From: Kiritimatiellia bacterium
Lineage (GTDB): Bacteria > Verrucomicrobiota > Kiritimatiellia > JAKQHR01
DNA length: 64,000 nt
Assembly: GCA_050178035.1 (NCBI GenBank)
Contig: JBFXGK010000001.1
Coordinates: forward strand, 128,679 to 192,678
Direction: 5' to 3'
Each line of letters opens with the position of its first letter. The stretch's first letter is position 1. A program made the position numbers and the translations under genes. The notes under the pieces were generated by a model. That model was not told where the DNA came from. It searched no databases and was given only the letters and a program-made list of their open reading frames with translations. Positions 4,229-56,921 of the stretch are shown here, one piece after another.

Positions 4229-5022
4229 TACCCGTGTGATTCGGTCGGGAACCGGCCCTGCTCGACTTCGTCCTTGTAGCTGGTCAGGGCGCGGGTGATT
4301 TCGGTGCCGAGTTCGGCGTAGCGTTTCACGAAGCGCGGCTGATTCCCATGATAGAGGCCAAGCAAATCGTGCCAGACCAGCACCTGACCATCACACCCGG
4401 GGCCTGCACCGATTCCAATGGTTGGAATATTTATCGAGGCGGTAATTTCTGCCGCCAGTTTCTGCGGAATGCATTCAAGCACCAGCGAAAAAGCTCCGGC
4501 CTCGGCCAGGTCTTTCGCGTCCTGTTTGAGCTGCTCCGCATCTTGTTCTGTTTTGGCCTGAACCCTGAACCCTCCAAAAACATTTACGCTCTGCGGGGTC
4601 AAACCAAGATGGGCCTGCACCGGGATCCCGTTGGCCACCATTCGTTGAACCAGTTCAACGCGCACGGCCCCGCCCTCGACCTTGACGGCATCAGCCCCGG
4701 CTTCTTTTAAAAACCGCCCGGCATTGATCAATGCTTCGTCTTCGGAGCCCTGATAGGAAAGAAAAGGCATGTCCGCCACCACCATGGCCTGTTTCACGGC
4801 TCGCGAAACCGCGCGGGTGTGGTGAAGCATTTCTTCCATGGTGACGGGAAGCGTTGTGTCGTATCCAAGAACAGTCATGCCCAGCGAGTCTCCCACAAGC
4901 ACCAGCGGGATGCCCGCCTCGTCCGCGATCCGGGCGGATGAAAAATCATAGGCCGTGATGCAGGCAATTTTCCGCTGACCCTTCTGGGCCTTGATCGTGA
5001 GCACTGTCCACTGTTTTTTCAT
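4225..5022 (-). CDS. panB: 3-methyl-2-oxobutanoate hydroxymethyltransferase
   Basis: ORF 4225..5073; [24 protein letters not shown] motifs. Start set to ATG at 5022 (MKKQWTVL), just after folK stop. Confidence 0.9.
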
Positions 5023-7752: not shown

Positions 7753-7829
7753 TTCCAATGATTGGAAGTTTCTTTCTGAAAAGTTCCAACCATTGGAAAA
7801 TCTAAACACGATTCCTCCAATGATTGGAA
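7753..7829. promoter_or_regulatory. array of three 7-1-7 palindromes TTCCAAT-N-ATTGGAA, 31-bp centre spacing, 30-106 bp upstream of dapA start
   Basis: Read directly: TTCCAATGATTGGAA 7753-7767, TTCCAACCATTGGAA 7784-7798, cTCCAATGATTGGAA 7815-7829. Confidence 0.5.
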
Positions 7830-7919
7830 GTTTTTACGCATTATTTTCCAGCGGCTGGAACTTAAAGTCAGCCTCCGGCCGACACCCGGAACGCTGGTGT
7901 CCTTCCGCAGAAAATCCGC

Positions 7920-7974
7920 GAAAATGCAAAATTTCGCAAAAAATTGGCATTTTTGACCGTTTTTTGCCATTTTT
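7920..7974. repeat. phased A/T-tract array, left part (interrupted by IS insertion)
   Basis: gaaaatgcaaaatttcgcaaaaaattggcatttttgaccgttttttgccattttt; T/A runs recur every ~10-11 bp. Confidence 0.5.
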
Positions 7975-9290
7975 GCACATCTGTCCCAGTATTACCGCCA
8001 CAGCATCAACTGGTTAGAAGAGGGAGGTGTTTCTGGGGAGGCGTCTGCCTGCTGAAAAGCCTGTAAAATGGGCACTTTTTCAAATAGCGAGACACTCAAG
8101 ACCTGTAGAATAATGTAGAGTGAAGCTTCTATTTTCAGCCGCTTCTTTATGATGGCGACCAGCAGATATACTGTGATCGCAATCCAGATTTGAGATTTAA
8201 CCGCATTGGGCGAGGTTCCGTAGAATGACTTGATCCGCAGATTCTGCTTGATCCATTTAAAAAATATTTCGATGTTCCAGCGGCCCTTGAAAAGTTCTGC
8301 AACCGTGAGGGGAGGAAGTGAAAAATTATTGGTAAGGAAAACCAGCGTCCGGTTTTCCTGATCACGATACTTGATGCGCCGGAGATGTTCCGGAAAGTAT
8401 CGGGCTGTCTGTGTACCCGTGAGAATGATGGTCTGATCGCAAAGGATGCCGCAGTCTCTATCGGATGGATGGGAGTAGATACGTTGGAACTGAAGATTGG
8501 ATCGGGCCCGTGTAACAAAATAGGCTTTAAGCGAGTGTAGCAGATAAAGGCGTTTGAAATCCAAATAGGCGCGGTCCATTACATAGTAGGCTCCGGGAAC
8601 CGGCAGGATGTGATCCAATACACTGGCATCACCTCGTTTGCCATCTGTAATCAGTATATATTCCGGGATATTGCCGGATAAGTTGAGAAGGGTATGCATC
8701 TTCACGGCCCCTTTGGTCCGGCAGAAATGAGCCCAAGGAAACATCGAAAGACACAGGTCGATCACCGTTGAGTCCAATGCGTATACATCGGCACCCAAAT
8801 CCGGCATCAGCGGATCATCCGCGTATAATCGTCTGGCCTCAGGAATCAGGACGTGAGCAAAATCAGCGTAGATGCGCCAGTCCCGGGTTTCGTTCGCAAC
8901 AGAAAGATTGTTGCGCGAGACGCGACTGTGAATCCCCAAGTGGTACAGCTTGCCGCTCACAGCCCGCAAACAGGATTCGATGTCCCGCAAACTTTCACGG
9001 CAAGTCAACTGAGCAAAGGCCATCACACGGAACTGCTCAGAGCACCGGAACGTCTTCACCTTGTAATCGCCCTGATAGCGATTCACCAACGTCTGAAATC
9101 GCCACCAGGGCAACTGCTGCATCAGCTGAGAAAATACGGTTGTTCCAGAATACATAAGGTTGATCTCCTCCTCCTGATCAACCTTATAGGAAAAACCAAT
9201 TTCAAGTCGGAAAGGATGTAATATCAACACATCCTTATGATGTAACGTGCGTTATAACTATTTTATGCGAAAACGTTGGGACAGATGTGC
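7975..9290 (-). mobile_element. IS element, IS4-family-like, ~1.3 kb, with terminal inverted repeats and flanking direct repeat
   Basis: Perfect 14-bp inverted repeats gcacatctgtccca (7975-7988) and tgggacagatgtgc (9277-9290); flanking direct repeat cattttt at 7968-7974 and 9291-9297 (7-9 bp depending on exact IR end); one DDE transposase ORF inside. Confidence 0.8.
7992..9155 (-). CDS. DDE transposase (IS4 family-like)
   Basis: ORF 7992..9230; start set to ATG at 9155 (MYSGTTVFSQLMQQLP...). Candidate DDE residues in YALDSTVIDL, YVMDRAYLDF, WNIEIFFKWIKQNLRIK. Confidence 0.85.
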   Translation of the reverse strand: MYSGTTVFSQLMQQLPWWRFQTLVNRYQGDYKVKTFRCSEQFRVMAFAQLTCRESLRDIESCLRAVSGKLYHLGIHSRVSRNNLSVANETRDWRIYADFAHVLIPEARRLYADDPLMPDLGADVYALDSTVIDLCLSMFPWAHFCRTKGAVKMHTLLNLSGNIPEYILITDGKRGDASVLDHILPVPGAYYVMDRAYLDFKRLYLLHSLKAYFVTRARSNLQFQRIYSHPSDRDCGILCDQTIILTGTQTARYFPEHLRRIKYRDQENRTLVFLTNNFSLPPLTVAELFKGRWNIEIFFKWIKQNLRIKSFYGTSPNAVKSQIWIAITVYLLVAIIKKRLKIEASLYIILQVLSVSLFEKVPILQAFQQADASPETPPSSNQLMLWR

Positions 9291-9350
9291 CATTTTTGGG
9301 CTTTTTGGGGGCATTTTTGACCATTTTTTGCACTTTTTCGTGGTTTTCAG
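9291..9350. repeat. phased T-tract array, right part (continuation across the IS)
   Basis: catttttgggctttttgggggcatttttgaccattttttgcactttttcgtggttttcag. Confidence 0.5.
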
Positions 9351-15643: not shown

Positions 15644-17253
15644 GAAACCGCCGCCTTTCGGACCGCGGGTATTGCGCGCGGGCTGCAGCTCACGGATTTT
15701 ATGCCGCATTCCATCAGTTTCCTGACCATCACCGGATCACTCGCCAGTTCGCCGCATACGGACAGCGACCGCCGGTGTTTTTCGGCGGCCGCTGCGATTC
15801 CGCGCAGCACCTGCCAGAACACCGGATGGTCAGAGGTGTATTCGTCAGTCACCAGCTCATTGCCGCGGTCCACCGCAAAAAGATATTGAGTAAGATCATT
15901 CGTGCCGATACTGGCAAATTGAGCCTCGGCCAGAATGGCATCCGCCTGAAGGGCGGCCGACGGGACTTCAAACATCACCCCGAATTCAATGCTGCCGGTT
16001 TTAATGTCCTCCACCATTTCTTTGAACATGTCGCGCAAGCGCCGGAATTGCGCAACATCAACGATCATGGGGAACATCACACGAACAGGGCCCTTCAGCG
16101 ATGCGCGTGCAATGGCACGCGCCTGATCACGAAACAGGTTCGGATGGCGGATCAGCAAACGGCTGCCGCGCAGGCCCAATGCGGGGTTTTCCTCCTTCGG
16201 AATCCTCATTGCCGGCAACGGCTTGTCTCCTCCGGCATCGAGCATCCGGAATGTGGTCACACGGCCTTCCATGGCCTCGACCACAGGCGCATAACGCGTA
16301 TACTGCGCTTCTTCAGACAGCAATTCGCCTGCGGATATGAATTCGAATTCCGTCCGGTAAAGTCCAATGCCCTCTGCCTTCATTTCGCGGGCTTCGGACA
16401 CTTCCCGGCCCAGTGTGATGTTGGCCATCACCTGAAGTTGCGGGACGGTGTCAACGGCTCCGTCACGGCGCGCCCTTCCCGCCTCGCAAGAGCAGGCGGC
16501 AATTGTTCTTTCATCCGGAGAAATGATCACTTCACCGGTGTCTCCATTCACAATCAGCTCTGTGCCGCAAGCAACGGTGCTGTGAATGTTCTTGATGCCG
16601 CTGACCGCGGGAATGCCCAGCGCGCGCGCAAGGATCGCAGCATGCGAGTTGACACCGCCATGTTCGGTGACAAATGCCAGAACCTCCCCGGTGTTCAAAC
16701 TGACGGTAAGGCTGGGCGTCAGCTCTTCGGCAATGACAATGCGGTTTTTGCCCCGGCGGCAGCGGCCGGCGCAACTGAACCCCGGTGCGGTATTGGACAG
16801 GTTGTCCAGCAGGCGGCGGCGAATCTCACCGATGTCAGACGCCCGCTCGCGAATGTACTCGTTGTCGAGAGCGCCCAGTTTCGTCTCATAGGCATCGAGC
16901 ACCGTATGAATCGCATTTTCAGCGTTGCGCAGGGCGGAACGGATGTGTTCGCGCAGCTGCTTAAGGATCATTGGATCCTCGACAATCATTTTCTGCGCAA
17001 CAAAAATGCCGGCCTCGGCCTGGCCCATCCGGTTTTCCACATGCGCGCGGATATTTTCAAGCTGCTGGGCTGTGGCTTCCACGGCATCTTCCATACGCTT
17101 GACTTCATCGTTGAGCTGTGCGGGTTCAATGGCGTAGTCGGGAACCTCCTGATGACGGTGATCATCAAAAAGGCAAACGCGGCCAAGGGCCACTCCTTTG
17201 CTCAGAGAAAGGCCTTGAACGCGTTTTTCAGCAGTTTTGTTTCCAGTGGCCAA
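15640..17253 (-). CDS. ptsI: phosphoenolpyruvate--protein phosphotransferase (PTS Enzyme I-like)
   Basis: 537 aa; EI motifs: catalytic His region GGVNSHAAILARALGIPAV, IGTNDLTQYLFAVDR, CGELASDP; N-terminal domain aligns with EI. Confidence 0.85.
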   Translation of the reverse strand: MATGNKTAEKRVQGLSLSKGVALGRVCLFDDHRHQEVPDYAIEPAQLNDEVKRMEDAVEATAQQLENIRAHVENRMGQAEAGIFVAQKMIVEDPMILKQLREHIRSALRNAENAIHTVLDAYETKLGALDNEYIRERASDIGEIRRRLLDNLSNTAPGFSCAGRCRRGKNRIVIAEELTPSLTVSLNTGEVLAFVTEHGGVNSHAAILARALGIPAVSGIKNIHSTVACGTELIVNGDTGEVIISPDERTIAACSCEAGRARRDGAVDTVPQLQVMANITLGREVSEAREMKAEGIGLYRTEFEFISAGELLSEEAQYTRYAPVVEAMEGRVTTFRMLDAGGDKPLPAMRIPKEENPALGLRGSRLLIRHPNLFRDQARAIARASLKGPVRVMFPMIVDVAQFRRLRDMFKEMVEDIKTGSIEFGVMFEVPSAALQADAILAEAQFASIGTNDLTQYLFAVDRGNELVTDEYTSDHPVFWQVLRGIAAAAEKHRRSLSVCGELASDPVMVRKLMECGIKSVSCSPRAIPAVRKAAVS

Positions 17254-17264
17254 AACGGCCTCAT

Positions 17265-17426
17265 CTATGCGACAGGCTCAAAGTCGCTTTTGGGAACACC
17301 GCATTCAGGACAAACCCAGCTGTCGGGAATGTCGGCAAAAGCGGTTCCGGGAGCAATCCCGTTGTCCGGATCTCCGACGGCGGGGTCATAAACGTATCCG
17401 CAGACGGTGCAAACATATTTCTGCAT
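17265..17426 (-). CDS. rubredoxin
   Basis: Not in ORF track (53 aa). Own translation: [53 protein letters not shown]; canonical CxxCG...WxCPxCG rubredoxin. Confidence 0.85.
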
Positions 17427-19466: not shown

Positions 19467-20249
19467 TCAAATGGCCTTGATCGAAAGAATGTCGCCGGTG
19501 AGACTCATGACCGCTTCTTCCACCACCAAATCCTCCCGCCCGCATCTTTCAGCGGCAGCGCGAACCATCATGGTCAGTCCACCGCAGCAGGGAACCTGCA
19601 TTCTGACGACAATGACTTTGGGGATGGACGGCTCAGCAAATATATCGGCCATTTTTTCCACATAGCCGTCTGTACGATCCAGCTTTGGGCAGGCTACAAC
19701 CAAGCCCCTGCCCCGCAGAAAACGCCAGTGCACGTCAGCCGAGGCGATTGGTCCGCAGGTGCTCATCACCACCAGCTCGCGGTTCTTGAAGAACGGCGCA
19801 CCCGCCTGCACCAGATGCAGCTGCACAGGCCACTGCTGAAGCTCCGACGGAATCGCCGTGGGCATCTGCGCGTGGGTCGCCACCGCCGGCTTTGCGGCGG
19901 GAGCATCCGGCACACGCATGCGTGTGCCGGGACATCCCCCGCCCGACGGGGCCAGGCCATGCTTTTTCCCCGCCTCGTCGAACTTCACAACCGCCGCCGC
20001 GCCCTGAGTCTCCGCCACATGCATGCGCGTGGCATTGAAGTCAAAACCATCCGCCTCGCGCTCTTCAATGGTCAGCGCGCCGGTCCGGCATTCACCGATG
20101 CAGTCTCCGAAACCATCGCAGAACTGCTCCTTGACCAGTTTTGCCTTGCCGTTGACGATCTTCAGCGCGCCCTCTGCGCAGGATGTGACGCATTCGCCGC
20201 ATCCGTTGCAGAGGTCTTCATTGATCCTGATGATCTTGCGCTTTGCCAT
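19467..20249 (-). CDS. 4Fe-4S dicluster domain-containing protein
   Basis: 260 aa; N-terminal CNGCGECVTSCAEGAL and CDGFGDCIGECRTGAL ferredoxin motifs; further Cys pairs C-terminally; directly downstream of hcp. Confidence 0.7.
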   Translation of the reverse strand: MAKRKIIRINEDLCNGCGECVTSCAEGALKIVNGKAKLVKEQFCDGFGDCIGECRTGALTIEEREADGFDFNATRMHVAETQGAAAVVKFDEAGKKHGLAPSGGGCPGTRMRVPDAPAAKPAVATHAQMPTAIPSELQQWPVQLHLVQAGAPFFKNRELVVMSTCGPIASADVHWRFLRGRGLVVACPKLDRTDGYVEKMADIFAEPSIPKVIVVRMQVPCCGGLTMMVRAAAERCGREDLVVEEAVMSLTGDILSIKAI

Positions 20250-20250
20250 A

Positions 20251-21900
20251 TCACTTCCCGGCCATCATGGCCGCGACATCGGCCTGCACTTCGCCAGTCG
20301 GTTTGATGTCGAAGTTCTCAACCAGCACTTTGGCGACAGCGGGCGAAAGGAACGCCGGAAGCGTCGGCCCCAGGCGGATGCCTTTCACCCCCAGATGCAG
20401 CAGCGCCAGCAGCACCGCAACGGCCTTCTGCTCGTACCAGGCGATGTCGAACGAAAGCGGAAGGTCATTGATGGAGGCCAGACCGAACGCCTCCTTCAGC
20501 TTCAGGGCGATGACCGCCAGCGAGTAGCTGTCGTTGCACTGCCCAGCATCCAGCACGCGCGGAATGCCGCCGATGTCGCCGAGGTTCAGCTTGTTGTAAC
20601 GGTACTTCGCGCAGCCCGCGGTCAGGATGATCGTGTCCTTTGGCAGAGCCTCGGCTACTTCTGTGAAGTAGCTGCGGTTTTTGTGACGACCATCGCATCC
20701 GGCCATCACCACAAAGCGCTTGATCGCACCGGACTTGACAGCCTCCACCACCTTGCCGGCCACGGCCATGACCTGATTGTGTGCGAAACCACCGACGATT
20801 TCGCCGTTTTCAATCTCCTGCGGCGGCGGACACTTCTTCGCCTGCTCGATGATCGCGGAGAAATCCTTCTGCTTGCCCGGTTTGCGGTCGGGGATGTGCT
20901 TTGCGCCCGGCCAGCCGGCCATGCCCGTGGTGTAAAAACGGTTGAGATAAGAATCCTTCACCGGAATGATGCAGTTGGTCGTCAGCAGGATCGGCCCGTT
21001 GAACGAGGCGAATTCCTTGTCCTGAAGCCACCAGCTCCCGCCGTAGTTGCCGGCCAGGTGCTTGTATTTCTTGAAGGCCGGATAGTAATGGCACGGAAGC
21101 ATTTCTCCGTGGGTATAGACATCCACCCCCGTGCCCTCTGTCTGCTGCAGCAGTTCGTCCATGTCCTTCAGGTCGTGGCCCGAAATCAGAATGCCCGGAT
21201 TTTTGCGGACGCCGGTGGCAACTTTTGTGATTTCCGGATTGCCATAGGTCTCGGTATTGGCTTTGTCGAGCAGCGCCATGGTCGTTACGGCAATTTCGCC
21301 CGCCTTCAGGACCATGCCCACCATTTGATCAACACTGAGTTTCTGAGTGGTCGAGATCAGACCATCAACCACAAACCGGTAGATGGCGTCATCCTCATAG
21401 CCGAGAACAAGCGCGTGATCAGCGTAGGCCGCGATGCCCTTCAGGCCAATGATCAGAAGCTGCTGGAGCGACCGCACGTCCTCGTTCGGCTCGGACGGGA
21501 TGCCGACCAGAAGCGCCTTGACCTGCAGATCCTCGCCCTTCTTCGGAGCCCATGTCGCCGCGTCGGGCAGACTTTTCGCCCAGGCGGCGTCCTTCTTCTC
21601 GCACTGCTTGCGAATGGCGTCGCGCTGCGCAACAGCCTCATGGATCAGGCGGCTGATGACTGCATCGTCAAAGTTGGCATTGGTGATTGTGGAAAAAAGA
21701 CCGCGGATAATGGTCTGTCCGACTGCGCGGTCATACAGGCCCAGTTCATCGGCTTTCTTGCCGGCAATGGCCAGTCCTTTCAGAGAATGGATCAGAAGAT
21801 CCATCAGATTTGCCGTGGGCTCCTGTTTTCCGCAAACGCCCCGGACGGTGCATCCCTGATTCTTCGCGGTCTCCTGACACTGGAAGCAGAACATACTCAT
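20251..21900 (-). CDS. hcp: hybrid cluster protein / hydroxylamine reductase
   Basis: 549 aa; N-terminal [11 protein letters not shown]...CTVRGVCGK Cys cluster and full-length Hcp architecture. Confidence 0.95.
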
Positions 21901-22370
21901 GATTTTCCCTTTCCTTTTTTTGGTTGTTTATAAATTTCAGCCAGCGTTGTTTTCTCAAAGAAAGCGTTCAGGCGGTTTTGAAGAATGCAGACGGACCCCT
22001 TCATCGGGCATTTCCCGCTGTAGGGACAGGGCTGCCCCTTGCGGTTGCAGACATTCATATAGACCGGCCCCTGCACGGCCTCGACAATCCGTGCGAGGCT
22101 GATCTTCCGGGTCGGAAGGGCCAGCAGATATCCCCCGCGCTTTCCGCGCACGGTTTTCACGACTCCGGCTTTTGCGAGCGTCTGCATGATCTTGCGGAGG
22201 GCGGGCAGCGGCACTTTGCAGTCCTTCGCCAGTTCAAGCGTGTCGGTGCGGGTGCACCGCCGGTCCAGCACATGCAGTGCCCGGAGCGCGTAATCGGTCT
22301 CTCTTCTGAGTATTTCCATAAGCCATCCTTTAAATGCGACCAATTTAGTCCTATTTAACTCCCGCGTCAA
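21897..22370 (-). CDS. Rrf2-family transcriptional regulator (NsrR/IscR-like)
   Basis: 157 aa; [10 protein letters not shown]...GGYLLALP wHTH signature; C-terminal Cys residues; 4-nt overlap with hcp start. Confidence 0.85.
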
Positions 22371-22854: not shown

Positions 22855-22931
22855 TTCCAATCATTGGAAGTATTTCCGGGAAAAGTTCCAACCATTGGAA
22901 GTTTTGTGAAGAAAAGTTCCAATGATTGGAA
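22855..22931. promoter_or_regulatory. array of three 7-1-7 palindromes TTCCAAT-N-ATTGGAA, 31-bp centre spacing, upstream of the Cys-rich/rrf2/hcp operon
   Basis: TTCCAATCATTGGAA 22855-22869, TTCCAACCATTGGAA 22886-22900, TTCCAATGATTGGAA 22917-22931. Confidence 0.55.
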
Positions 22932-24224: not shown

Positions 24225-24315
24225 GAAAAAATTGACGAAATTCGGCCAATTTTGAGCATTTTTAGCCGTTTTTGGCGTGTTTTCGCTAATTTTGGCCATT
24301 TCGATGCTTTTTCAG
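24225..24315. repeat. phased A/T-tract array
   Basis: gaaaaaattgacgaaattcggccaattttgagcatttttagccgtttttggcgtgttttcgctaattttggccatttcgatgctttttcag; T runs every ~10 bp. Confidence 0.5.
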
Positions 24316-29603: not shown

Positions 29604-29788
29604 ATAATCTCCTGATCCTCTTCGGGCGTTTTATACCACAAAAACGGCTTGTCCGAAGCAAAAACATAGCTCAAAATATCATTATATCTTGATATGTCAA
29701 TATATAGATTGCGTTTTCTGCGGAAAATCCTTTTGTTTGAATCCCGCACGCCCATCGGGTAACCTGTATCCGCTTTTAGAGTACGGAG

Positions 29789-37707: not shown

Positions 37708-37800
37708 GCGGTTTTAACCTGTTTTTGGCCATTTTTGAGCATTATTAGCCGTTTTTTGGCCTTTTTGAGCACTTTTTGGGCATTTTTAAGAGAATTTTCA
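37708..37800. repeat. phased T-tract array (best example)
   Basis: gcggttttaacctgtttttggccatttttgagcattattagccgttttttggcctttttgagcactttttgggcatttttaagagaattttca; T runs start at about 37712, 37722, 37732, 37752, 37762, 37773, 37784, 37795. Confidence 0.55.
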
Positions 37801-40130: not shown

Positions 40131-41660
40131 ATGAACTGGACTTCATTCACGGAGCGGTTTCCCGGATCGGCCGTGCCCATGCCCTGGTGGGAGTGGGCAT
40201 CCGTGGCCGGGCTCCTGCATCTGCTCTGCTTCACACTGGTTCTGCTTCATTGTCTTCGGCATCGCCGCGAAGCCCCTGCGACGCTGCTCTGGATTTTTGT
40301 GGCGTGGGGCTTCCCGTTTGTCGGGCCGCTGATTTATCTGGCGCTCGGAATAGACCGGGTGCCCCAGAAGATATTCCGGAAGCGCAGCAAAGATCAGGCG
40401 CTGTGGACGGAGCTCAAGGCGCGCAACGCCGAGACGCTTCCCCTTGCCTATTGGCGCGCCGTGCACGAGTCGGCCGCGGAAATCCCGCACGGGCAGCCGG
40501 GCTACCGGTTTAACCGCGCGGTGAACTCCATTCTTGCCCATCACCCGCTTCTGGACGGGAACCGCATCCGGCCGCTTGTTACCGGCGATGAGGCCTATCC
40601 CAAAATGATGGAGGCTATCCGGTCGGCCGGCCATCACATCCATCTGCAGTGTTTTATCATCAGCAACGATGACACCGGGCGGGCCTTCCTGGATCTGCTG
40701 GCCGAAAAAGCGCGTGAAGGCGTCACCGTTCGCCTGCTCTATGACCGGTTCGGATGCACCAAAGCCGTTTTTTCGGGCTTGTTCCGGAAGTACCGGCGCA
40801 TTCCCAACCTCCACATCGCCGGCTGGACGCTGGCGAATCCTCTCAAGAGGCAGTTCCAAATCAATCTGCGCAACCACCGCAAAAGCCTGATCGTGGACGG
40901 ACGCCTCGCCTTCACGGGCGGAATCAATATCTCCTTGGACAATGTCGCCCGGGACATGCAGCCTGCCATTCGCGACTATCATTTTGAGGTCGTCGGCCCC
41001 ATTGTGCAGGAGCTGCAGTACACCTTCCTGCGCGACTGGTATTTCATTACCGATGAAGACCCAGACAACTTTCTGCAGGAGGTCTATTTCCCTCAGCTCC
41101 CGGCCATTGGCGCCGCGAAAGTGCGGCAGGTGGACAGCGGCCCGTCGCATGTCTCCGAAATCCTGACGGATGTCTATTTTGCGGCCATTGTGTCGGCACG
41201 GAACGAGCTGATGATCGTAACTCCCTATTTCATTCCCAACCGCGACCTGGTGCGCGCGCTGCGCGCGGCGGCCTTGCGCGGCGTCAACGTGCGCCTGGTG
41301 GTTCCCCGGAAGAACAACCACCGCTATGCGGGGCTCGCAGGCCAGGCGCTTTACGAGGAACTGCTGGAAGCCGGAGTACGCATATTCGAGCGCCGGCCGC
41401 CGTTTCTGCATGCGAAAGCCCTCATCGTCGACGATGCGGCCGCGCTGGTGGGCACGGCGAATTTCGACGCCCGCAGTTTCCGTCTCAATTTCGAAAGCAC
41501 CATGGTTGTCTTGGACGAAGCGTTCTGCAATCAGCTGAAGCCCGTCGTGCTCGCCGACCTTGCGGAAAGTGATGAAGTGATCCTGGAGGAATGGCAGAAG
41601 CGCCCCAACCGCCGGAAGATGCTGGAAAATCTCGCGTTCCTGATGATGCCGGGGCTGTAG
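40131..41660 (+). CDS. cls: cardiolipin synthase (phospholipase D family)
   Basis: 509 aa; N-terminal TM helices and two HKD motifs (HRKSLIVDG, HAKALIVDD). Confidence 0.9.
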   Translation: MNWTSFTERFPGSAVPMPWWEWASVAGLLHLLCFTLVLLHCLRHRREAPATLLWIFVAWGFPFVGPLIYLALGIDRVPQKIFRKRSKDQALWTELKARNAETLPLAYWRAVHESAAEIPHGQPGYRFNRAVNSILAHHPLLDGNRIRPLVTGDEAYPKMMEAIRSAGHHIHLQCFIISNDDTGRAFLDLLAEKAREGVTVRLLYDRFGCTKAVFSGLFRKYRRIPNLHIAGWTLANPLKRQFQINLRNHRKSLIVDGRLAFTGGINISLDNVARDMQPAIRDYHFEVVGPIVQELQYTFLRDWYFITDEDPDNFLQEVYFPQLPAIGAAKVRQVDSGPSHVSEILTDVYFAAIVSARNELMIVTPYFIPNRDLVRALRAAALRGVNVRLVVPRKNNHRYAGLAGQALYEELLEAGVRIFERRPPFLHAKALIVDDAAALVGTANFDARSFRLNFESTMVVLDEAFCNQLKPVVLADLAESDEVILEEWQKRPNRRKMLENLAFLMMPGL

Positions 41661-41689
41661 ATTTCTGCTTGTGTCCAGGCCCCAAAGAA

Positions 41690-42199
41690 ATGATGATGAT
41701 TCCCATGCGAGCATTTGTTTACATGTTGATTGCGGCGGCATGCGTGCTTCACGTCCGCGCCGCCGAGCAAATCATAGATGTCGGTATGCCGGAAGCCCGG
41801 GAACATCTCGGCTACGGCTGGGGCGGCGACGAGCGCGGGCGCGGCGGAAGGTTCGCGTGGATCAAGGAACTGGAAGGCGATGTCCGGTTTGATCTGGATG
41901 CCGTCGCAGACACGGAGATCACGATTCGGGCGGTTCCCTATTATGTGGCTGACCGGAAGCAGATCGTGGCGCTTTACATCAACAACCGCTTTGTGAAGGA
42001 ATGGATTTGCACACACACGCGCCAGTGGAACTATGATCCATATACGATCAAGGTTCCGGCAGAAATGCTTCAGCAGGGCCGAAACCAAATGACACTCCGC
42101 ATGGGATACCGCGCGCGCGGAAACAAGCGGTATCACGCGCTGGCGGTTGAATCCATCCTGATCCGTTCCAACGCGCCCGATGAAAAAAAGGACAACTGA
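41690..42199 (+). CDS. secreted hypothetical protein
   Basis: ORF 41591..42199; start set to ATG at 41690 (MMMIPMRAFVYMLIAAACVLHVRAA signal peptide), after cls stop. Confidence 0.5.
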   Translation: MMMIPMRAFVYMLIAAACVLHVRAAEQIIDVGMPEAREHLGYGWGGDERGRGGRFAWIKELEGDVRFDLDAVADTEITIRAVPYYVADRKQIVALYINNRFVKEWICTHTRQWNYDPYTIKVPAEMLQQGRNQMTLRMGYRARGNKRYHALAVESILIRSNAPDEKKDN

Positions 42200-44747: not shown

Positions 44748-44793
44748 TTCCAATCATTGGAAGTATTATAACGAATAGTTCCAGGGATTGGAA
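44748..44793. promoter_or_regulatory. two 7-1-7 palindromes, 31-bp centre spacing, 63-108 bp upstream of iorA
   Basis: TTCCAATCATTGGAA 44748-44762; TTCCAGGGATTGGAA 44779-44793 (degenerate left half). Confidence 0.5.
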
Positions 44794-44855
44794 CTTTTAC
44801 AAAGGCCTGCCTCCTTGCATAAATTCTTTCATTTGTTAAAGTCGGCCATTCTTGT

Positions 44856-46631
44856 TTGCGGCAGGATATGAAACCGACAAAAACACTGATGCTGGGAAAT
44901 GAAGCGATTGCGCGCGGCGCCTGGGAAGCCGGCGTGCGCGTGGCCACGGCCTATCCCGGCACTCCCAGCACCGAAGTCACCGAACACATCGCGCAGTACA
45001 AGGAAATAGATTCCGAGTGGTCGGTGAATGAAAAAGTCGCACTGGAAGTAGCGATTGGCGCTTCCGTGGCCGGCGCGCGCGCAGTCTGCACGATGAAGCA
45101 CGTTGGCCTCAATGTGGCCATGGATCCCCTGCTCTCGATTTCTTATCCCGGCGTCAATGCGGGGCTGGTGGTCGTGGTGGCGGACGACCCCGGACAGCAC
45201 AGTTCCCAGAACGAGCAGGACACCCGCTATTTCGGCATGGCCGGAAAGCTGCCGGTGCTCGAACCGTCCGACAGCCGCGAGTGCCGCGATTTCATGATCC
45301 GCGCGTTTGAAATCAGCGAGAAATTTGACACCCCTGTGATCGTTCGCACAACCACGCGCGTGGCCCACGCCTATGGTCTCGTGGATCATGGCGAGCGCGC
45401 TGACGTTCCGCTGCGCGAGTACGACAGCCGATTCGGGAAATACATGGTCGCGCCCGCATTCTCGCGCAAGCGCCGCGTGGTGGCCGAGGAGCGTCTTGGG
45501 AAACTGCGCGGGTTCGCGGAAACCACCGACTTGAATGTTTATGAGGAAGGCCGGTCTGATACCTGCATCGTCACCGGGAGCATTGCTTATCAGTACTGCA
45601 AGGAAGTCATGCCCGAGGCCGGTTTCTGCAAACTGGGGCTTTCGTATCCCCTGCCCGAAAAGAAGCTGAAAGATTTCTGCAGACGGTACCAGCAGGTTTT
45701 CGTTGTTGAGGAACTGGAACCCATTTTCGAAAACCACCTGAAGACGCTCGGAATCCCAGTGATTGGAAAAGATAAAGTTCCAATCATTGGAGAATTGAGC
45801 ACGGAGATCGTCCGAAAGGCGCTGACCGGGATTGCTCCGAAGCCGGCAGCATCCCAATTTGAAAACCTTCCTGTTCGTCCTCCGGTGCTCTGCCCCGGAT
45901 GCCATCACCGCGGACCGTTCTATGTGATGAAGAAACTCAAGCTGAAAGTGGCCGGCGACATCGGATGCTACACGCTGACCGCCTCGCCGCCGCTGAGCAT
46001 CATGGACACCGCGATCTGCATGGGCGCGGGCATCGGCATGGCCTTCGGCATGCAGAAGGCGCGCGGAAAGGATTTCGCGGGAAAATCTATCGCGGTCATC
46101 GGCGACTCGACCTTCTGGCATTCCGGCATGACCGGCCTCCTGGACATTGTCTATAACCGCGGCATCACCACGGTTGTCATTTTGGACAACAGCATCACCG
46201 CGATGACCGGGCATCAGGAGAATCCATCCAGCGGCAGGACTCTCAGCGGAGAAACCGTGCCTGCGATCAGCTTTGCGGATTTTGCAAAATCCATCGGCAT
46301 CAGGCATGTGCGCGAAGTGGATGCCTTCAACCTGAAGGAACTCGAAACAGTCATGCGCGAGGAACTGGCGCGCGAGGAGCCGTCGGTGATCATCACCAAA
46401 CGCATCTGCATCCTGCACCCGTGTGCGGTCAGGCATTTCCCGCTGAAGGTGAATCCGGATCTCTGCAAGAGCTGCATGAAATGCCTTTCGATCGGATGCC
46501 CCGCCATTTCCTTCGACGGCGACAAGGTGAAGATTGATCAGGTGCTTTGCGTGGGATGCGAACTGTGCGCGGGCATATGCCCGTTCCATGCGATTGAAAA
46601 GCAGCCCAAACCCGACGGAGGCGAATCTTGA
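44856..46631 (+). CDS. iorA: indolepyruvate ferredoxin oxidoreductase subunit alpha
   Basis: 591 aa; TPP-binding and 4Fe-4S ferredoxin motifs (CKSCMKC...CPAISF, CVGCELCAGICP). Confidence 0.95.
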   Translation: MRQDMKPTKTLMLGNEAIARGAWEAGVRVATAYPGTPSTEVTEHIAQYKEIDSEWSVNEKVALEVAIGASVAGARAVCTMKHVGLNVAMDPLLSISYPGVNAGLVVVVADDPGQHSSQNEQDTRYFGMAGKLPVLEPSDSRECRDFMIRAFEISEKFDTPVIVRTTTRVAHAYGLVDHGERADVPLREYDSRFGKYMVAPAFSRKRRVVAEERLGKLRGFAETTDLNVYEEGRSDTCIVTGSIAYQYCKEVMPEAGFCKLGLSYPLPEKKLKDFCRRYQQVFVVEELEPIFENHLKTLGIPVIGKDKVPIIGELSTEIVRKALTGIAPKPAASQFENLPVRPPVLCPGCHHRGPFYVMKKLKLKVAGDIGCYTLTASPPLSIMDTAICMGAGIGMAFGMQKARGKDFAGKSIAVIGDSTFWHSGMTGLLDIVYNRGITTVVILDNSITAMTGHQENPSSGRTLSGETVPAISFADFAKSIGIRHVREVDAFNLKELETVMREELAREEPSVIITKRICILHPCAVRHFPLKVNPDLCKSCMKCLSIGCPAISFDGDKVKIDQVLCVGCELCAGICPFHAIEKQPKPDGGES

Positions 46632-47227
46632 AGTCCGCGACCAACATCCTGATTGCCGCCGTAGGCGGACAGGGCGCGCTGCTGGCTTCGAAGATTCTGG
46701 GAGCCTGCGCGACCGCGCGCGGCGACGATGTGAAGATGTCGGAAATCCACGGCATGGCCCAGCGCGGCGGAAGCGTGGTGACCCATGTGCGGTTCGGGCA
46801 GAAGGTTTTTTCGCCGACCATCGAACAGGGAACTGCGGATGTGCTGCTGGCCTTTGAGATGCTGGAAGCGGCACGTTACGCAACGATGTTGAAAGCCGGC
46901 GGGACCGTGATTTTGAACACGCAGGCCATCGCGCCGCTCCCGGTGCTCACCAACGAAATGCCCTACCCCGCCGATATCATCGGCCGTTTGCAGAAAATGG
47001 ATCTCCGGGTGTGGCACGTGGATGCCCTCGACCTTGCGCGAAAGGCCGGCCATGTCAAAACCGTGAACACCGTCCTCATCGGCATGTATGCGCGGATGGA
47101 CGGCGGATCCGCCGAACCATGGCTGAAGGTGCTTTCAGAAAATCTGCCCGAACGGCTTTTTAAAGTGAACCAGGCCGCCTTCATGGCCGGTTATGAAATC
47201 AGTCCTCCGTGGACAAAGCAGGAGTAA
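46628..47227 (+). CDS. iorB: indolepyruvate oxidoreductase subunit beta
   Basis: 199 aa; IAAVGGQGALLASKIL motif; TTG start overlapping iorA stop. Confidence 0.9.
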   Translation: MKSATNILIAAVGGQGALLASKILGACATARGDDVKMSEIHGMAQRGGSVVTHVRFGQKVFSPTIEQGTADVLLAFEMLEAARYATMLKAGGTVILNTQAIAPLPVLTNEMPYPADIIGRLQKMDLRVWHVDALDLARKAGHVKTVNTVLIGMYARMDGGSAEPWLKVLSENLPERLFKVNQAAFMAGYEISPPWTKQE

Positions 47228-50069: not shown

Positions 50070-51638
50070 TTATGCCGTGCGAATGCCTTCCGAGTCCGTG
50101 TGGATCAAGCCGTTTATCAAGTGCCCTTTGCCCGCCAGACCCAGGATGAAGCAGACGGCGGCGGCGAGCAGATAGCCGTGGCCGACACTTGATGTGAGTG
50201 CGATTTGCATTTTGGGGGAATGGATCACGCCCACGAAGCTCAGCAGCGCAGCCGCGAGGAAGAATCCGGCGGCCTTTTTGAGCTGGCGGTCAATCAGCGC
50301 AGCGGTTGCCGCGCCCCAAAGGAGTCCGACCACAATCGCGCCGCCGGCGACAGTGGTGTGCCCCGTCACATACGCGCCCTGCTGCAGCATGTTTTTCATC
50401 AGTTCAGGATCGGTCACGATCGCAGGCGCCGTTGTGTCGCCCATCGCGCGCAGGGCCTGCAGCAGGCTTCCCCACTGCTTCACGAGCAGATCGGAGACGT
50501 GCGGAATGAGCGCAATGCCCACGGCCATGGCATGGTGCTTCGGGCAGGCCGTGAAGGCCTGGCCGGTGATCACCAGCGCAATATAGACCAGCATGGGCGC
50601 GACCGCGGCAATCGGGATGATCTTGTGCATGAAGCCCACAAAGCCCAGCACGGCGCCGAGGCAAAGCACAACGCCCACGGCGAGGGCATAGCCCGCGCGC
50701 GCGTTCATGCGTTTGTAGCCGGGGTGGCCGATATAAACGGTCGTCGGAAAGGCCGAACCGCAGAGCGCGCCAACCATAGTTCCCACTCCGTCCATGATCT
50801 GGCATTTTCGGACATCATACTTGTCGCCGGCGGCCTCGGCGGATTCAACGTTGTTCATGGTCTCGAGGAAGTTGTAGATCTCCACTGGAATAATGATGGC
50901 CAGCAGTTCCGGATGCGAGAAGAGCGCTTTCATGCCGACGATGATATCCTTGATCACGGGAACCGGAAAATGAAAACCAAGCTGTTCAAATTCCACTTTC
51001 GTGTGGCCCATGCAAAGGGAAATTACAGACCCGACAATTACGGCCAAAAGTCCCGCGGGAATGCCAAACGGCAGGCGGAGACCGGCCACCAGCCCGATAA
51101 GGATGATGATCATGGCTGGAAAGCCGATCAGGGGCGCTTCGAAGATTTCCGCAAAGGGAACGACCGCGATCCATGCGATGGCAATGCCCGCAAGGGTGCC
51201 CAGCATGCCCGCGCGCGGCGTGACGCGCTTGATCACCGGCCCGATCACGCTTCCCAGCGCCTCGATCACTCCGCCAAGAAGGGCGGCCGCTATGCCAACC
51301 TGCCAGGCGAGAACCGGATCCTGCGTGGCAAAATAAATCGGGCCGATCACGCCGAAAAGATAAACGAACATGACGGGCGTGCTGATGCCATAGGGAAGCG
51401 CCGTCACATTATCGCGTCCCTCTTTCTTGGCGAGCTGGACGGCAAGATAAGCGTAGAATGCGAGGCCGACGATCAATCCAACGCCAACGCCGGGCAGGAT
51501 GCGGCCAAAGACGATGGAGTCCGGCATTTTGAAGACAAACTTGCAGACACCGCTCAGAATGATCATGTTCGCGAGGTTGTCCGCAAACAACGCCCAAAAT
51601 GCGTTCCATTCGCCCTTTGAGAATATTCTTCCGCCCAT
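50070..51638 (-). CDS. NCS2-type (xanthine/uracil/vitamin C or AzgA-like) permease
   Basis: 522 aa; 13-14 TM helices; weak similarity by eye to purine permeases; family assignment tentative. Confidence 0.55.
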   Translation of the reverse strand: MGGRIFSKGEWNAFWALFADNLANMIILSGVCKFVFKMPDSIVFGRILPGVGVGLIVGLAFYAYLAVQLAKKEGRDNVTALPYGISTPVMFVYLFGVIGPIYFATQDPVLAWQVGIAAALLGGVIEALGSVIGPVIKRVTPRAGMLGTLAGIAIAWIAVVPFAEIFEAPLIGFPAMIIILIGLVAGLRLPFGIPAGLLAVIVGSVISLCMGHTKVEFEQLGFHFPVPVIKDIIVGMKALFSHPELLAIIIPVEIYNFLETMNNVESAEAAGDKYDVRKCQIMDGVGTMVGALCGSAFPTTVYIGHPGYKRMNARAGYALAVGVVLCLGAVLGFVGFMHKIIPIAAVAPMLVYIALVITGQAFTACPKHHAMAVGIALIPHVSDLLVKQWGSLLQALRAMGDTTAPAIVTDPELMKNMLQQGAYVTGHTTVAGGAIVVGLLWGAATAALIDRQLKKAAGFFLAAALLSFVGVIHSPKMQIALTSSVGHGYLLAAAVCFILGLAGKGHLINGLIHTDSEGIRTA

Positions 51639-51689
51639 ATCACTCCTCCAATGTTATGCAGCCGCTGAATGAAGATTTTAAAGAAATTT

Positions 51690-51785
51690 AGGTGTTTTTA
51701 AGCATTTTCGAGCATATTTTGGCCGTTTTTTGCCATTTTTAGGCATTTTTTAGCCCTTTTTGCTCATTTTTGAGCATTTTTTAAG
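51690..51785. repeat. phased T-tract array
   Basis: ggtgtttttaagcattttcgagcatattttggccgttttttgccatttttaggcattttttagccctttttgctcatttttgagcattttttaagccc; nine T runs at ~10-11 bp period. Confidence 0.55.
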
Positions 51786-51792
51786 CCCTGAA

Positions 51793-53208
51793 TTATTTTG
51801 CTTTCAAATGTTTGGCAAGGCCCTCGTAGGCCTTTTTGAACGGGTCCATCGGTGCGTTCAGCACGCCCGCGCCCACCTGCCCCACGCCGGGCTCCTTGTG
51901 AGCCACGCCGGTGTCAATGAACGGCAGAATGTTCTTTTCAACCACCTTCACAACATCAATGCCCGTCGGTGTACCGCGGAAGTTCAGGGATGGAATCTGA
52001 TACATGTTGTTTTCCGCCGCCGTGATTTCGTACATCGTCATCGTGTACTGCAGCGCATCCGCCGCGGTTCCGCCCACGAACTGCACAATGGCCGGCGAGG
52101 CTGCGATCGCGAAGCCGCCGAGCCCGCCCGTTTCCGTGATGGCGCTGTCGCCAATGTCGCGCGCAGCGTCGGCCTTGCTGAAGCCGGGGAAATACAGCGC
52201 ATCCGGAACCAGCGCTTCGCCGACATACCACTTCCCTCCGGTGGCGGAAATCTGCACGCCGAAGTCCGTGCCGTTGCGGGCCATGACCGTCGCGACGCTG
52301 CTGTTTTTGATCCCGCGCGCGGCATCCAGCACGCATTTGCTGGCGGGCATGGACAGGTTCAGGAAGAAATGGTCGTTGCTGTGGATGAACTCCAGGACGG
52401 CCGCCGCATCGGTGCGGTTCCCGGTGGTCTTGATGATGGCCGGGGCCAGCAGGCGATAGAGAAGCGAAGTTCCCGCGCGGTTGCGGTTGTGCACTTCGTC
52501 GCCCATGTGCAGGGCCTGCGCGATCAGGTTCTTGAGATCAATGAAGCCAAGCTGTTCAACCGCACGCTGCAGGACCGGATAGAGCACCTTTTCCATCCAG
52601 CGCAGGCGATCAATCACCTCCGGGCTGTAGGCTCCGTAGCGGAGCACCTTGCCGAGTCCCTCGTTCAGCGTGCAGTAGGCCTTGTTGCCAAAGGTCTTGT
52701 TTTCGATGATCCACACCGGCATCGAAGGCGTGACCACGCCCGCCATCGGGCCGACCGCGCAGTGCTCGTGGCAAGGCGCAAATTTCAATTTCCCTGACTT
52801 GGCTAACTTCTCCGCCTCTGCCGGGGTTTTCGCCATGCCCTCATAAAGCAGTCCGCCCATCATTGCGCCGCGCATCGGGCCGCACATGCGGTCCCAGGTG
52901 ATCGGCGGGCCGGAATGCAGGAACAGATTCTTTTTCATTCCGGGGATCACGTCAATCGCGCGCGCAAGGCCCACCACGCGCGGCATGCCGCGCAGGATGA
53001 TGTCCATCGCCTTCTTGTTGGCCTTTTCGATCTGGGCCTTTTTGCCAGCAATGATTCGAACCGCCTCCGGCGAAACATCCACCGGCGGCTTCCACTGCAC
53101 CTGAATGGCGGGCGTCCCGACTTCGTCCAGCGCGGCCTTGAAGGATTCGAGTCCAATATTGACCACTTTAACTTGACTGTTGAAAAGTTCTTTCACGGCC
53201 ATGATCAT
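51793..53208 (-). CDS. DUF1116 domain protein (YlbE-like)
   Basis: 471 aa; near-collinear to E. coli YlbE as I recall it (HSGPP, CHEHCAVGPM, NEGLGKVLRYGAY, FFLNLSMPASK, GIAHKEPGVGQVGAG). Confidence 0.85.
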   Translation of the reverse strand: MIMAVKELFNSQVKVVNIGLESFKAALDEVGTPAIQVQWKPPVDVSPEAVRIIAGKKAQIEKANKKAMDIILRGMPRVVGLARAIDVIPGMKKNLFLHSGPPITWDRMCGPMRGAMMGGLLYEGMAKTPAEAEKLAKSGKLKFAPCHEHCAVGPMAGVVTPSMPVWIIENKTFGNKAYCTLNEGLGKVLRYGAYSPEVIDRLRWMEKVLYPVLQRAVEQLGFIDLKNLIAQALHMGDEVHNRNRAGTSLLYRLLAPAIIKTTGNRTDAAAVLEFIHSNDHFFLNLSMPASKCVLDAARGIKNSSVATVMARNGTDFGVQISATGGKWYVGEALVPDALYFPGFSKADAARDIGDSAITETGGLGGFAIAASPAIVQFVGGTAADALQYTMTMYEITAAENNMYQIPSLNFRGTPTGIDVVKVVEKNILPFIDTGVAHKEPGVGQVGAGVLNAPMDPFKKAYEGLAKHLKAK

Positions 53209-54743
53209 TCTCCCAGTTTTTCAATGATGCTGCCGGCCAGCCTGCAGGCTTCCGCATTGGTCGGCATAACGATTGCGCCCGCCTTGCGCAGGGTTTCCCT
53301 GACCTTGCTCCGGTTCTGCGGATCGCGGGCGGTGCCCGTGATCGAACAGACCACCAGCACTTTTTTGCAGGCCTTTTTAATGACGTCCTGAAGTTCCCCT
53401 GCGGGATCCATGTTGGAACCGTATCCCAGCACCACATCGAGCAGAATGACGGCTGTTTCAGGGTCGCTGGCCTCCTGCAGGATGCGCTGGTTGCGGAGCG
53501 AGAAATCAATCATCGGATGCGGACGGCCCACTGTGAATTCGTCCTCGCCAAGATCAATGACGGTGTTCTTCCGGCTCCTGAGCAGATCCTTTAACTGCTT
53601 CGCGGTTCCGGAAGGCGAATTGGCATACAGCCCGCCCGGCAGCTTCTGGAAAAGAATCTGTGCCTCGGTGCAGAAGGTGCCGCCGCTGAACAGGCCGCGC
53701 AGATATTTCTGCTTGGGCTTGCAGCGGTTCGCGAGCGCCGAGGCCTGCGACCGGATGGCCGCATCATTTGCGGCCAGCTGGCTGTCCACATCCCTGACCT
53801 TTGCGCCGCGCGAAAGCGCCACCGCCTTGAGGGCGGCCTCTTCCAGCGTGACCGCCATCAAAGCATCCTTTGGCTTAGCCCCAAGGAACATTGAGACCAC
53901 CGGCTTGCTGATTTTTGCCGTGATTTTTCCGATCTCGCGCATCACGCTCTCATGCGGCGGCTTTGAAACCAGCAGGATGACCTTCGTCTGCCGGTCTTCC
54001 GCCAGCGCCTTCAACGCCTCGATGAACATGATGCCGCCGATGTCCTTTTTGACATCGCGGCCGCCTGTGCCGATCGCCTGCGATATGCCGCAGCCTTCGT
54101 TGGAAATGATGCAGGTGACTTCCTGGCAGCCCGTGCCGGAAGCGGCCACCACGCCGATGTCGCCACGGTTCACGACATTCGCAAACGCCAGCGGAACGCC
54201 GTTGATGATGGCTGTTCCGCAGTCGGGCCCCATGACCAGCAGGCCTTTCCTGCGGGCAAAGAGTTTCAGCTTCTTCTCATCCTCAATGGAAACATTGTCG
54301 GAAAACAGCATCACATGCAGCCCTTTTTCGAGCGCCTTCATGGCTTCGGCCGCTGCATATCGGCCGGCAATGGAAATGATGGCGAGGTTTGCGTCGGGAA
54401 CTTTCTCCAGCGCGCTGGCAAGGTTCGTGGCGGTGGCCGATGCCTGTCCTCCGGAGGATACCTTCTTGCGGCTTGCCGAAAGCAAATCCTCGGCGGCCTT
54501 CAACGCCGCCTCGGCCGCGGCCTGCGTTTTTGCGCGAATGCCGATCAGCAGGTCTGTATCCGTGGCATTTTTGAACTCGTTCAGCAGAAGCCCCGAATTA
54601 GCCAGGATACTCCTGTTTTCCTTCGTGCCCATCACCACGGCGGCATCCACAACGCCATCGCGGGCGGAAAGTTCACGGCCCACATTCATCAGCGCCACAG
54701 AATCAAAGTAGGCGCCCTTTTTAATCACACCTTTAACCACCAT
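53205..54743 (-). CDS. fdrA: FdrA family protein (CoA-binding, succinyl-CoA synthetase-alpha-like)
   Basis: ORF 53205..54797; start set to ATG at 54743 (MVVKGVIKKGAYFDSVALM); motifs KLPDANLAIISIAG, GLLVMGPDCGTAIINGVPLAFANV, LGEDEFTVGRPHPMID. Confidence 0.85.
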   Translation of the reverse strand: MVVKGVIKKGAYFDSVALMNVGRELSARDGVVDAAVVMGTKENRSILANSGLLLNEFKNATDTDLLIGIRAKTQAAAEAALKAAEDLLSASRKKVSSGGQASATATNLASALEKVPDANLAIISIAGRYAAAEAMKALEKGLHVMLFSDNVSIEDEKKLKLFARRKGLLVMGPDCGTAIINGVPLAFANVVNRGDIGVVAASGTGCQEVTCIISNEGCGISQAIGTGGRDVKKDIGGIMFIEALKALAEDRQTKVILLVSKPPHESVMREIGKITAKISKPVVSMFLGAKPKDALMAVTLEEAALKAVALSRGAKVRDVDSQLAANDAAIRSQASALANRCKPKQKYLRGLFSGGTFCTEAQILFQKLPGGLYANSPSGTAKQLKDLLRSRKNTVIDLGEDEFTVGRPHPMIDFSLRNQRILQEASDPETAVILLDVVLGYGSNMDPAGELQDVIKKACKKVLVVCSITGTARDPQNRSKVRETLRKAGAIVMPTNAEACRLAGSIIEKLGE

Positions 54744-54757
54744 GATACAAACTCCCT

Positions 54758-56921
<2,164 letters not shown>

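Follow-up and report, generated by a model that had tools for sequence, protein, structure and literature searches.

The spacer between allG and a downstream permease gene in the window, by which we mean the whole 64-kb stretch of DNA analysed here, contains a regular array of nine helically phased A-tracts (array E). Array E is one copy of a clade-specific, dispersed intergenic family of phased A-tracts, in which the unit A5-6 YGSYC recurs every 10-11 bp and three units make up a module of 31 bp, or three helical turns. The most likely explanation, with somewhat less than an even chance, is that array E is a curved-DNA upstream element of an internal permease promoter; put more broadly, and with about the same confidence in the two together, it is either such an element or a docking site for a DNA-wrapping or nucleoid-type protein. 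The locus comprises the following features.

50070..51638, minus strand: permease gene (downstream gene), encoding a 522-aa membrane protein labelled from the source names of its homologues
51639..51694, minus strand: proximal spacer from array E to the permease ATG, with a T-rich stretch, a candidate -10, the leader CTGCATAACATTGGAGG and a Shine-Dalgarno sequence
51695..51782, minus strand: array E, nine helically phased A-tracts on the sense strand, each A4-6 plus a GC-rich spacer of 4-6 bp, arranged in three super-units of ~31 bp
51793..53208, minus strand: allG (AllG/DUF1116; Pfam, NCBIfam), the upstream gene and the final gene of a tightly packed gdh-allH-fdrA(allF)-allG block
53205-54797, minus strand: fdrA/allF (Pfam/NCBIfam), in the allG block
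54758-55567, minus strand: allH, in the allG block
55572-56918, minus strand: gdh (glutamate dehydrogenase), in the allG block

On the + strand, positions 51695-51782 contain nine T-runs (4-6 T) with start-to-start steps of 10, 12, 9, 10, 10, 11, 10 and 10 bp (mean 10.25 bp, range 9-12 bp); each of these A/T tracts is at least 4 bp long and free of TpA steps. Since both flanking genes are encoded on the minus strand, these T-runs are A-tracts on the sense strand of both genes, and the term T-tracts used in the original prediction is correct for the + strand and is refined here accordingly. The sense strand reads CTT AAAAAATGCTC AAAAATGAGC AAAAAGGGCT AAAAAATGCCT AAAAATGGC AAAAAACGGCC AAAATATGCTCG AAAATGCTT AAAAACACCT, and many of the array units are CAAAAATG. 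Tandem Repeats Finder (TRF) detected 8.5 copies at period 10 and, scoring better (96), 3.1 copies at period 31. The array lies 11 bp past the allG stop and 57-147 bp upstream of the permease ATG, with a local GC content of 0.36 compared with 0.57 for the window. The longest phased series observed has nine tracts, compared with three in 200 dinucleotide shuffles of the whole 64-kb window, and when the AT-rich 154-bp spacer alone was shuffled 2000 times, 0.25% of the shuffles reached five runs, with a maximum of six. Both the nine runs with a period of about 10-11 bp and the geometry originally described, with the permease ATG at 51638 and the allG stop at 51793-51795, both on the minus strand, were thus confirmed.

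The gene map was derived from a self-trained codon model combined with Pfam. Longest-ORF gene maps are misleading in this GC-rich window, where antisense shadow ORFs of 400-680 aa overlap real genes (e.g. 15775-17391 (+), 20023-21933 (+), 40143-41741 (-) and 44829-46883 (-)); codon-usage scoring, Pfam and the gene calls of contig L084 resolve them. Among the gene labels assigned earlier, FdrA and AllG were recovered with Pfam and NCBIfam, while the permease label derives solely from the source names of homologues: no Pfam-A or NCBIfam model matched the 522-aa protein at E <= 0.001, and its more than 1000 homologues (E < 1e-100) from many phyla are named xanthine/uracil/vitamin C, AGZA or NCS2 permease. 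The minus-strand genes at 51793-56918 start with gdh, followed by allH, fdrA(allF) and allG with overlapping stop/start codons, and then the permease gene; a module of the oxamate-carbamoyltransferase type is thereby present in a Kiritimatiellia-like genome that is apparently anaerobic. The relatives L001/L083 (89% identical) instead have two ABC ATPase genes ahead of the permease gene, and their 61-bp spacer lacks an array.

The window contains several further members of the family, one of which is interrupted by an insertion sequence.

7944..7976, minus strand: array A, the proximal half of the same dapA/eno array as array B, with three A-tracts, followed by phased T-tracts at 7904-7945
7975..9290, minus strand: IS4-family insertion sequence within array A/B, encoding a 412-aa DDE_Tnp_1 plus DUF4372 transposase
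9293..9347, minus strand: array B, distal half of an originally single array located between the divergent genes dapA and eno
24250..24293, minus strand: array C, five tracts upstream of a NosD-like secreted protein gene, abutting a TTGGCC-18-CATAAT promoter-like site
29640..29676, plus strand: weak, degenerate family remnant of three tracts (AAAAACGGCT ... AAAAA ... AAAA), upstream of the + strand gene gnd
37712..37798, minus strand: array D, eight tracts, 78 bp ahead of the start codon (ATG, 37634) of a gene for a CAAX-protease-like membrane protein

Arrays A, B, C, D and E all carry T on the + strand, as determined by a phased-run scan of the window. Four loci share the three-unit core AAAAN{5,7}AAAAACGGYYAAN{2,3}ATGCY (four matches versus zero expected), which corresponds to the 31-bp period. 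Array D is among the loci with this core, in agreement with the kinship to the repeat at 37708-37800 that had been proposed earlier. The remnant upstream of gnd (6-phosphogluconate dehydrogenase) is the sole trace of the family in the window with A-tracts on the + strand. The family is present in 4-5 copies in 64 kb, or about one per 13 kb, and four of the approximately ten intergenic spacers of at least 120 bp (about 40%) contain an array. Arrays this dense suggest a global factor more than a specific regulator, which favors an explanation that we consider doubtful, namely that the arrays are sites for a putative clade-specific DNA-binding or DNA-wrapping protein reading the YGSYC spacers once per helical turn. 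Such a protein might be a nucleoid-associated protein, a gyrase-type wrapper or an oligomerizing winged-helix regulator, and the arrays would then be silencing, topological-barrier or domain-boundary elements and not promoter activators, which amounts to a DNA-level form of the insulator role originally suggested. The spacer consensus (CGGCC, TGCTC, TGGCC, TGCCC) and the 31-bp module, which are common to loci and species, also point to a sequence-reading protein.

Arrays A and B are contiguous in L084 (ENA contig, 99% identity), which lacks the insertion sequence, and therefore represent a single array that was split. The IS4-family element has 13-bp terminal inverted repeats (GCACATCTGTCCC) and is flanked by a target-site duplication of 7-9 bp of array (GCCATTTTT, + strand), and the corresponding empty site is located at L084:3200-3290. 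As the 99% identical L084 lacks the element, the insertion is recent, and it may reflect a preference for bent or A-tract targets. That an array tolerated an insertion without obvious harm is compatible with a neutral or selfish minisatellite, in which an A-rich 31-bp module grows by slippage or gene conversion wherever intergenic space tolerates it, with any orientation bias resulting only from selection against U-runs in transcripts. We consider this unlikely. The arrays are not associated with dispersal machinery, no flanking inverted repeats or target duplications were found around them and the units are direct repeats, with neither a palindromic unit of the REP/BIME or MITE type nor terminal inverted repeats combined with a target-site duplication. 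The sole inverted pair, in which an array unit and the permease coding sequence are 89% complementary over 18 nt, is most likely due to chance.

A second intergenic family in the window consists of the palindrome TTCCAATCATTGGAA, which occurs in sets of two or three copies exactly 31 bp apart, a spacing equal to the super-period of the A-tract arrays. Sets are located at 7753-7829 (upstream of dapA), 22855-22931 (upstream of the gene that ends at 22761) and 44748-44793 (upstream of the gene with its start at 44868), and the family is also represented at 4413-4427 and 45754-45792. Allowing up to three mismatches, 24 strand-hits were obtained (~12 palindromic sites counted on both strands) compared with 2.6 expected. 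Judged from sequence, these sets resemble operators arrayed in phase for a regulator that is dimeric or oligomeric.

The best named matches to the enolase are from Kiritimatiellia, Lentisphaerota and Verrucomicrobiota metagenome-assembled genomes (MAGs), and the closest genome representative is a Verrucomicrobiota MAG with an 89% identical permease. No array of at least three tracts was identified in ~70 kb from the relatives L001/L083, L085, L206/208, L209 and L210, which share 84-87% identity in eno or 89% in the permease. Likewise, 1.37 Mb around permease homologues of other phyla contained no array with at least five tracts. By contrast, a pattern scan, which also gave many chance matches, identified ~18 metagenome contigs (0.55-0.62 GC, mostly from sludge or digesters) with arrays of 5-12 tracts composed of the same units (AAAAACGGCC, AAAAATGCTC and AAAAATGGCC), consistent with the unit A5-6 YGSYC. 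The arrays are therefore multi-copy, intergenic and clade-restricted, as are dispersed repeats. Restriction to a narrow clade, with absence from ~70 kb of relatives, would also be expected for a lineage-specific protein and its sites, whereas the array of L139, a near-perfect 31-bp tandem, is what a minisatellite would produce.

Two metagenomic loci differ from the others in their surroundings. At L135:8142-8792, two 5-tract arrays in the same orientation and ~600 bp apart bracket a stretch without a confidently called gene, and the same locus is present in L129, L147, L160 and L184 (97-100% identity, five contigs). At L182:5510-5687, a 6-tract array lies 49 bp past the 3' end of tRNA-Gly(GCC) with T-tracts on the tRNA strand; next to this convergent tRNA gene, it is a family member without an adjacent protein-gene start.

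Curvature was predicted with two dinucleotide wedge models (Bolshoy-Trifonov and AA-wedge); controls behaved as expected, with in-phase A5N5 strongly curved and A5N10 straight. In both models, array E ranks first in curvature among the 130-bp segments of the 64 kb, with a modelled end-to-end/contour ratio of 0.24-0.34, and the top five places are taken by arrays E, D, B, C and A. Summing the vectors of the tract centres, which requires no model, yielded a phasing efficiency that peaks at 0.95-0.96 for array E at 10.2-10.34 bp/turn (0.96 at 10.34 bp/turn), and the predicted bend is ~150 degrees when reckoned at 18 degrees per tract. With its tracts, helical spacing and high static curvature as modelled, array E has the predicted properties of intrinsically curved DNA. 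Across 22 arrays with 148 intervals, spacings of 10 bp (58%), 11 bp (25%) and 9 bp (11%) predominate, with a mean of ~10.2 bp, and A-runs have lengths of 4 (33), 5 (72) and 6 (42). All 22 arrays have a period within 0.2 bp of the helical repeat, which slippage alone does not predict and which thus argues against a minisatellite. Compensation between successive spacings (phase-locking) was not detected across the intervals (permutation p = 0.40), in part because one interrupted tract adds a 20-bp spacing.

Comparison of orthologous loci indicated how the arrays evolve. In L138 (98.1% identical overall), array E is 95.7% identical, with one tract broken by two substitutions and no length change; a 31-bp length polymorphism between the window and L138 was ruled out by alignment, which showed the L138 array to be full-length. 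The sister species represented by L082 (86.6% nucleotide identity overall) shares the allG-permease synteny. Its array is 66.7% identical to array E and two units (21 bp) shorter, keeps seven phased A-tracts and has units shifted to AAAATTGSC. Identity is 92% in the neighboring coding DNA, and the last 25 nt upstream of the ATG are conserved as well. The whole-unit length difference between species and the faster evolution of array E compared with coding DNA would fit a minisatellite, and the drift of the L082 array to AAAATTGSC-type units indicates that strict sequence recognition, as expected for a binding protein, is not universal. Conversely, the orthologous loci L139 and L182b (79% identity) have arrays that are 89% identical and thus more conserved than the flanking genes (78-82%), in favor of such a protein. 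Contig L164 matches the window at 97% identity across the gene for the CAAX-protease-like protein and into the proximal part of array D; within this array the match stops, and a different, divergently oriented neighbor lies beyond it. As the upstream neighbor differs, array D travels with its downstream gene. This linkage across a rearrangement, together with the persistence of arrays at orthologous sites over about 13-21% nucleotide divergence, speaks against neutral repeat growth. Phasing is kept everywhere compared, and unit sequence is conserved in some lineages and drifting in others.

In most tandem contexts (~7/9; C, D, E, L139/L182b and L203), the A-strand of the array is the sense strand of the next gene. 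A strict rule to this effect held in the window but failed in L196 and L171a, where T is on the sense strand (gene strands fixed by Pfam), leaving a bias. Where the flanking genes diverge (dapA/eno, L158, L100), an array necessarily faces one gene on either side. Across the family, between 0 and >250 bp separate an array from the next start codon. The arrays of L139 and L182b occupy the entire spacer, and the next gene, which encodes a signal-peptide protein, has its start codon inside the last unit. Several members of the family begin at most 20 bp past the preceding stop codon, and the arrays of L196, L171a and L182a (the last by a tRNA) are located just past a gene 3' end and far from any start. 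This variable position relative to gene starts and ends is in line with a minisatellite, and the many arrays that hug the 3' end of the upstream gene agree with boundary-type sites for a binding protein. The variable distance and the arrays by 3' ends also count against a promoter element, as does the start codon within the last unit of L139 and L182b, which leaves no room for a classical promoter past the array.

A function in RNA was also considered, in which array E would form an A-rich, unstructured intercistronic leader in an allH-fdrA-allG-permease transcript and promote ribosome loading (e.g. via S1 or Hfq) or RNase processing. The usual sense orientation of the A-strand in tandem contexts, the start of array E immediately past the allG stop, the lack of a terminator between allG and the permease gene, the start codons within the last unit in L139/L182b and a predicted RNA that is largely unstructured are all in accordance with this idea. 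We nevertheless regard it as quite improbable: a period of 10.2 bp is meaningless for RNA, L196 and L171a carry T on the sense strand, the divergent dapA/eno spacer serves both strands, several upstream AUGs would be present in the leader, and no Rfam match was obtained. The occurrence of both orientations relative to genes fits a role of the duplex better than one of the RNA. As the Rfam search of the array had no match at E <= 1, a known RNA family was ruled out. In L139 and L182b, the array is free of stops in the frame of the downstream gene, but array E has sense-frame stops; given these stops, and since openness follows trivially from unit composition, a coding function was rejected as a general explanation.

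The original prediction proposed that the T-runs might separate and insulate the two transcription units, and an intrinsic terminator or attenuator ending the fdrA/allG transcript would be one means of doing so. Array E is located right after the allG stop, and a hairpin followed by a T-run is present at 51761-51776. However, this only hairpin with a T-run is on the + strand and thus antisense to both genes. A search of the sense strand at array E for a hairpin followed by a U-run was negative; the sense transcript would contain A-runs and no U-tail, and RNA folding was not significant on either strand (z = -1.5 for sense and -0.8 for antisense). Furthermore, the same family occurs in divergent promoter regions, where no terminator is needed. 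Insulation by termination is therefore not supported, and we regard a terminator as highly improbable.

The helical period, the phasing kept despite drift, the occurrence in either orientation and the linkage to downstream genes together argue for a role based on DNA structure, exerted in the 5' control region of the gene downstream, with curvature as the presumably selected property. In the preferred reading, array E would act at the level of DNA: ~90-100 bp curved by a predicted ~150 degrees directly upstream of the permease gene would wrap or contact RNA polymerase, as UP elements or upstream curved activators do, or, as an alternative step, dock a nucleoid-type protein that sets promoter activity. 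The proximal spacer contains the Shine-Dalgarno sequence GGAGGAG at 51643-51649, before the permease ATG, and the leader CTGCATAACATTGGAGG, which is conserved in L138 and in the sister species L082. The hexamer TAAAAT at 51675-51680, kept in L138 and without a -35 element, is a sequence-based candidate for the -10 of a permease promoter, relative to which array E would span about -30 to -120. We thus infer a promoter between array E and the ATG from these sequence features, and a new permease transcription start downstream of the array is plausible. A sigma-70 scan detected no full promoter in arrays E, D and A/B or between array E and the ATG, and its one match was the TTGGCC-18-CATAAT site abutting array C. 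The E. coli UP consensus AAAWWTWTTTTNNNAAA had 23 matches (up to three mismatches) versus 17.8 expected, including one in array E with three mismatches, so that an rrnB P1-type UP element as defined by this consensus was not matched above chance. Both negative scan results at array E weigh against a promoter element, and the promoter-like pair beside array C speaks in favor of one. In related Kiritimatiellia, the eno promoters look sigma-70-like (TTGCxx-N17-TAxxxT), whereas the permease upstream region has a good -10-like TAAAAT and no -35. This is a setting in which A-tracts located further upstream are known to make up for the missing element; A-tracts are reported to be able to replace the -35 element (PMC9825172). 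Curvature alone does not predict the spacer consensus, the recurrent three-unit order or the conservation of the L139/L182b arrays, which point to sequence-specific recognition or homogenization; together with the 31-bp module and the clade restriction, which are likewise left unexplained by curvature alone, this consensus keeps a sequence-reading binding protein under consideration.

The arrays share features with several known systems. In the kinetoplast minicircle bent region, CA5-6T tracts at 10-bp intervals produce extreme planar curvature in a single region per circle. Many of the array units are likewise of the CA5-6T type, but they occur in chromosomal bacterial intergenic copies beside ordinary genes and not on a eukaryotic mitochondrial minicircle. 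REP/BIME and ERIC sequences are palindromic and act largely as RNA hairpins, and MIRUs are 40-100-bp units with small ORFs. Similar to these repeats, the arrays are multi-copy, strictly intergenic, often located within or between operons, clade-specific, apparently variable in unit number and targets of insertion sequences; unlike them, they are direct repeats without a palindrome, their period is one helical turn, and no significant RNA structure is predicted for them. The periodicity of 10-11 bp would also fit direct-repeat sites of the OmpR/PhoB type, but arrays of 9-12 units and the genome-wide density argue against a single specific regulon.

Phased A-tracts are documented upstream of bacterial and phage promoters (PMC9825172; also PMC516772 and PMC3940949). 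The arrays resemble such curved upstream promoter DNA in having A4-6 tracts without TpA every 10-11 bp within ~150 bp of a gene start, and differ from the classical cases (3-6 tracts, no shared spacer) in their 9-12 very regular tracts, YGSYC consensus, 31-bp super-unit and multi-copy dispersal in one clade. In Campylobacter jejuni, a periodic AT signal replaces the -35 box of RpoD promoters (Petersen et al., 2003, as cited in PMC9825172), and the Helicobacter pylori sabA gene has a T-tract 'rheostat' (PMC4081817). As proposed for array E, upstream periodic or repetitive A/T tracts and not a -35 hexamer set promoter strength in these two cases, and changes in repeat length alter the geometry. 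Both organisms are AT-rich, however, and their signal is a statistical bias or a single homopolymer, in contrast to the discrete GC-spaced arrays in a 57% GC genome described here. A full-text literature search with the unit sequences and with Kiritimatiellaeota plus A-tract, in a scope excluding most subscription journals, returned nothing specific. The kind of element, phased A-tract curved DNA near promoters, has thus long been known, whereas its form, long regular consensus arrays dense in one clade, appears to be new.

For annotation, these T-runs should not be taken for terminators. The bacterial role of phased A-tracts is debated, with RNA polymerase wrapping, nucleoid-protein docking and genome packaging under discussion, and has usually been inferred from weak statistical periodicities. 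More speculatively, and in our estimate improbably, the family could belong to a clade-specific chromosome-architecture system in which a putative wrapping or filament protein reads the 31-bp module on pre-bent DNA at hundreds of intergenic sites. If true, boundaries of a topological or transcriptional nature would be created between neighboring units, and the system would be a bacterial counterpart of insulators or positioned nucleosome-like particles and would have arisen recently within Kiritimatiellia. The uncultured Kiritimatiellia-like lineage, with its regular arrays of 5-12 tracts and close relatives that lack them, offers a natural presence/absence contrast, which, combined with the phasing retained at orthologous loci despite drift, would make it a clean system for distinguishing selection on curvature itself from selection through a protein that reads it.
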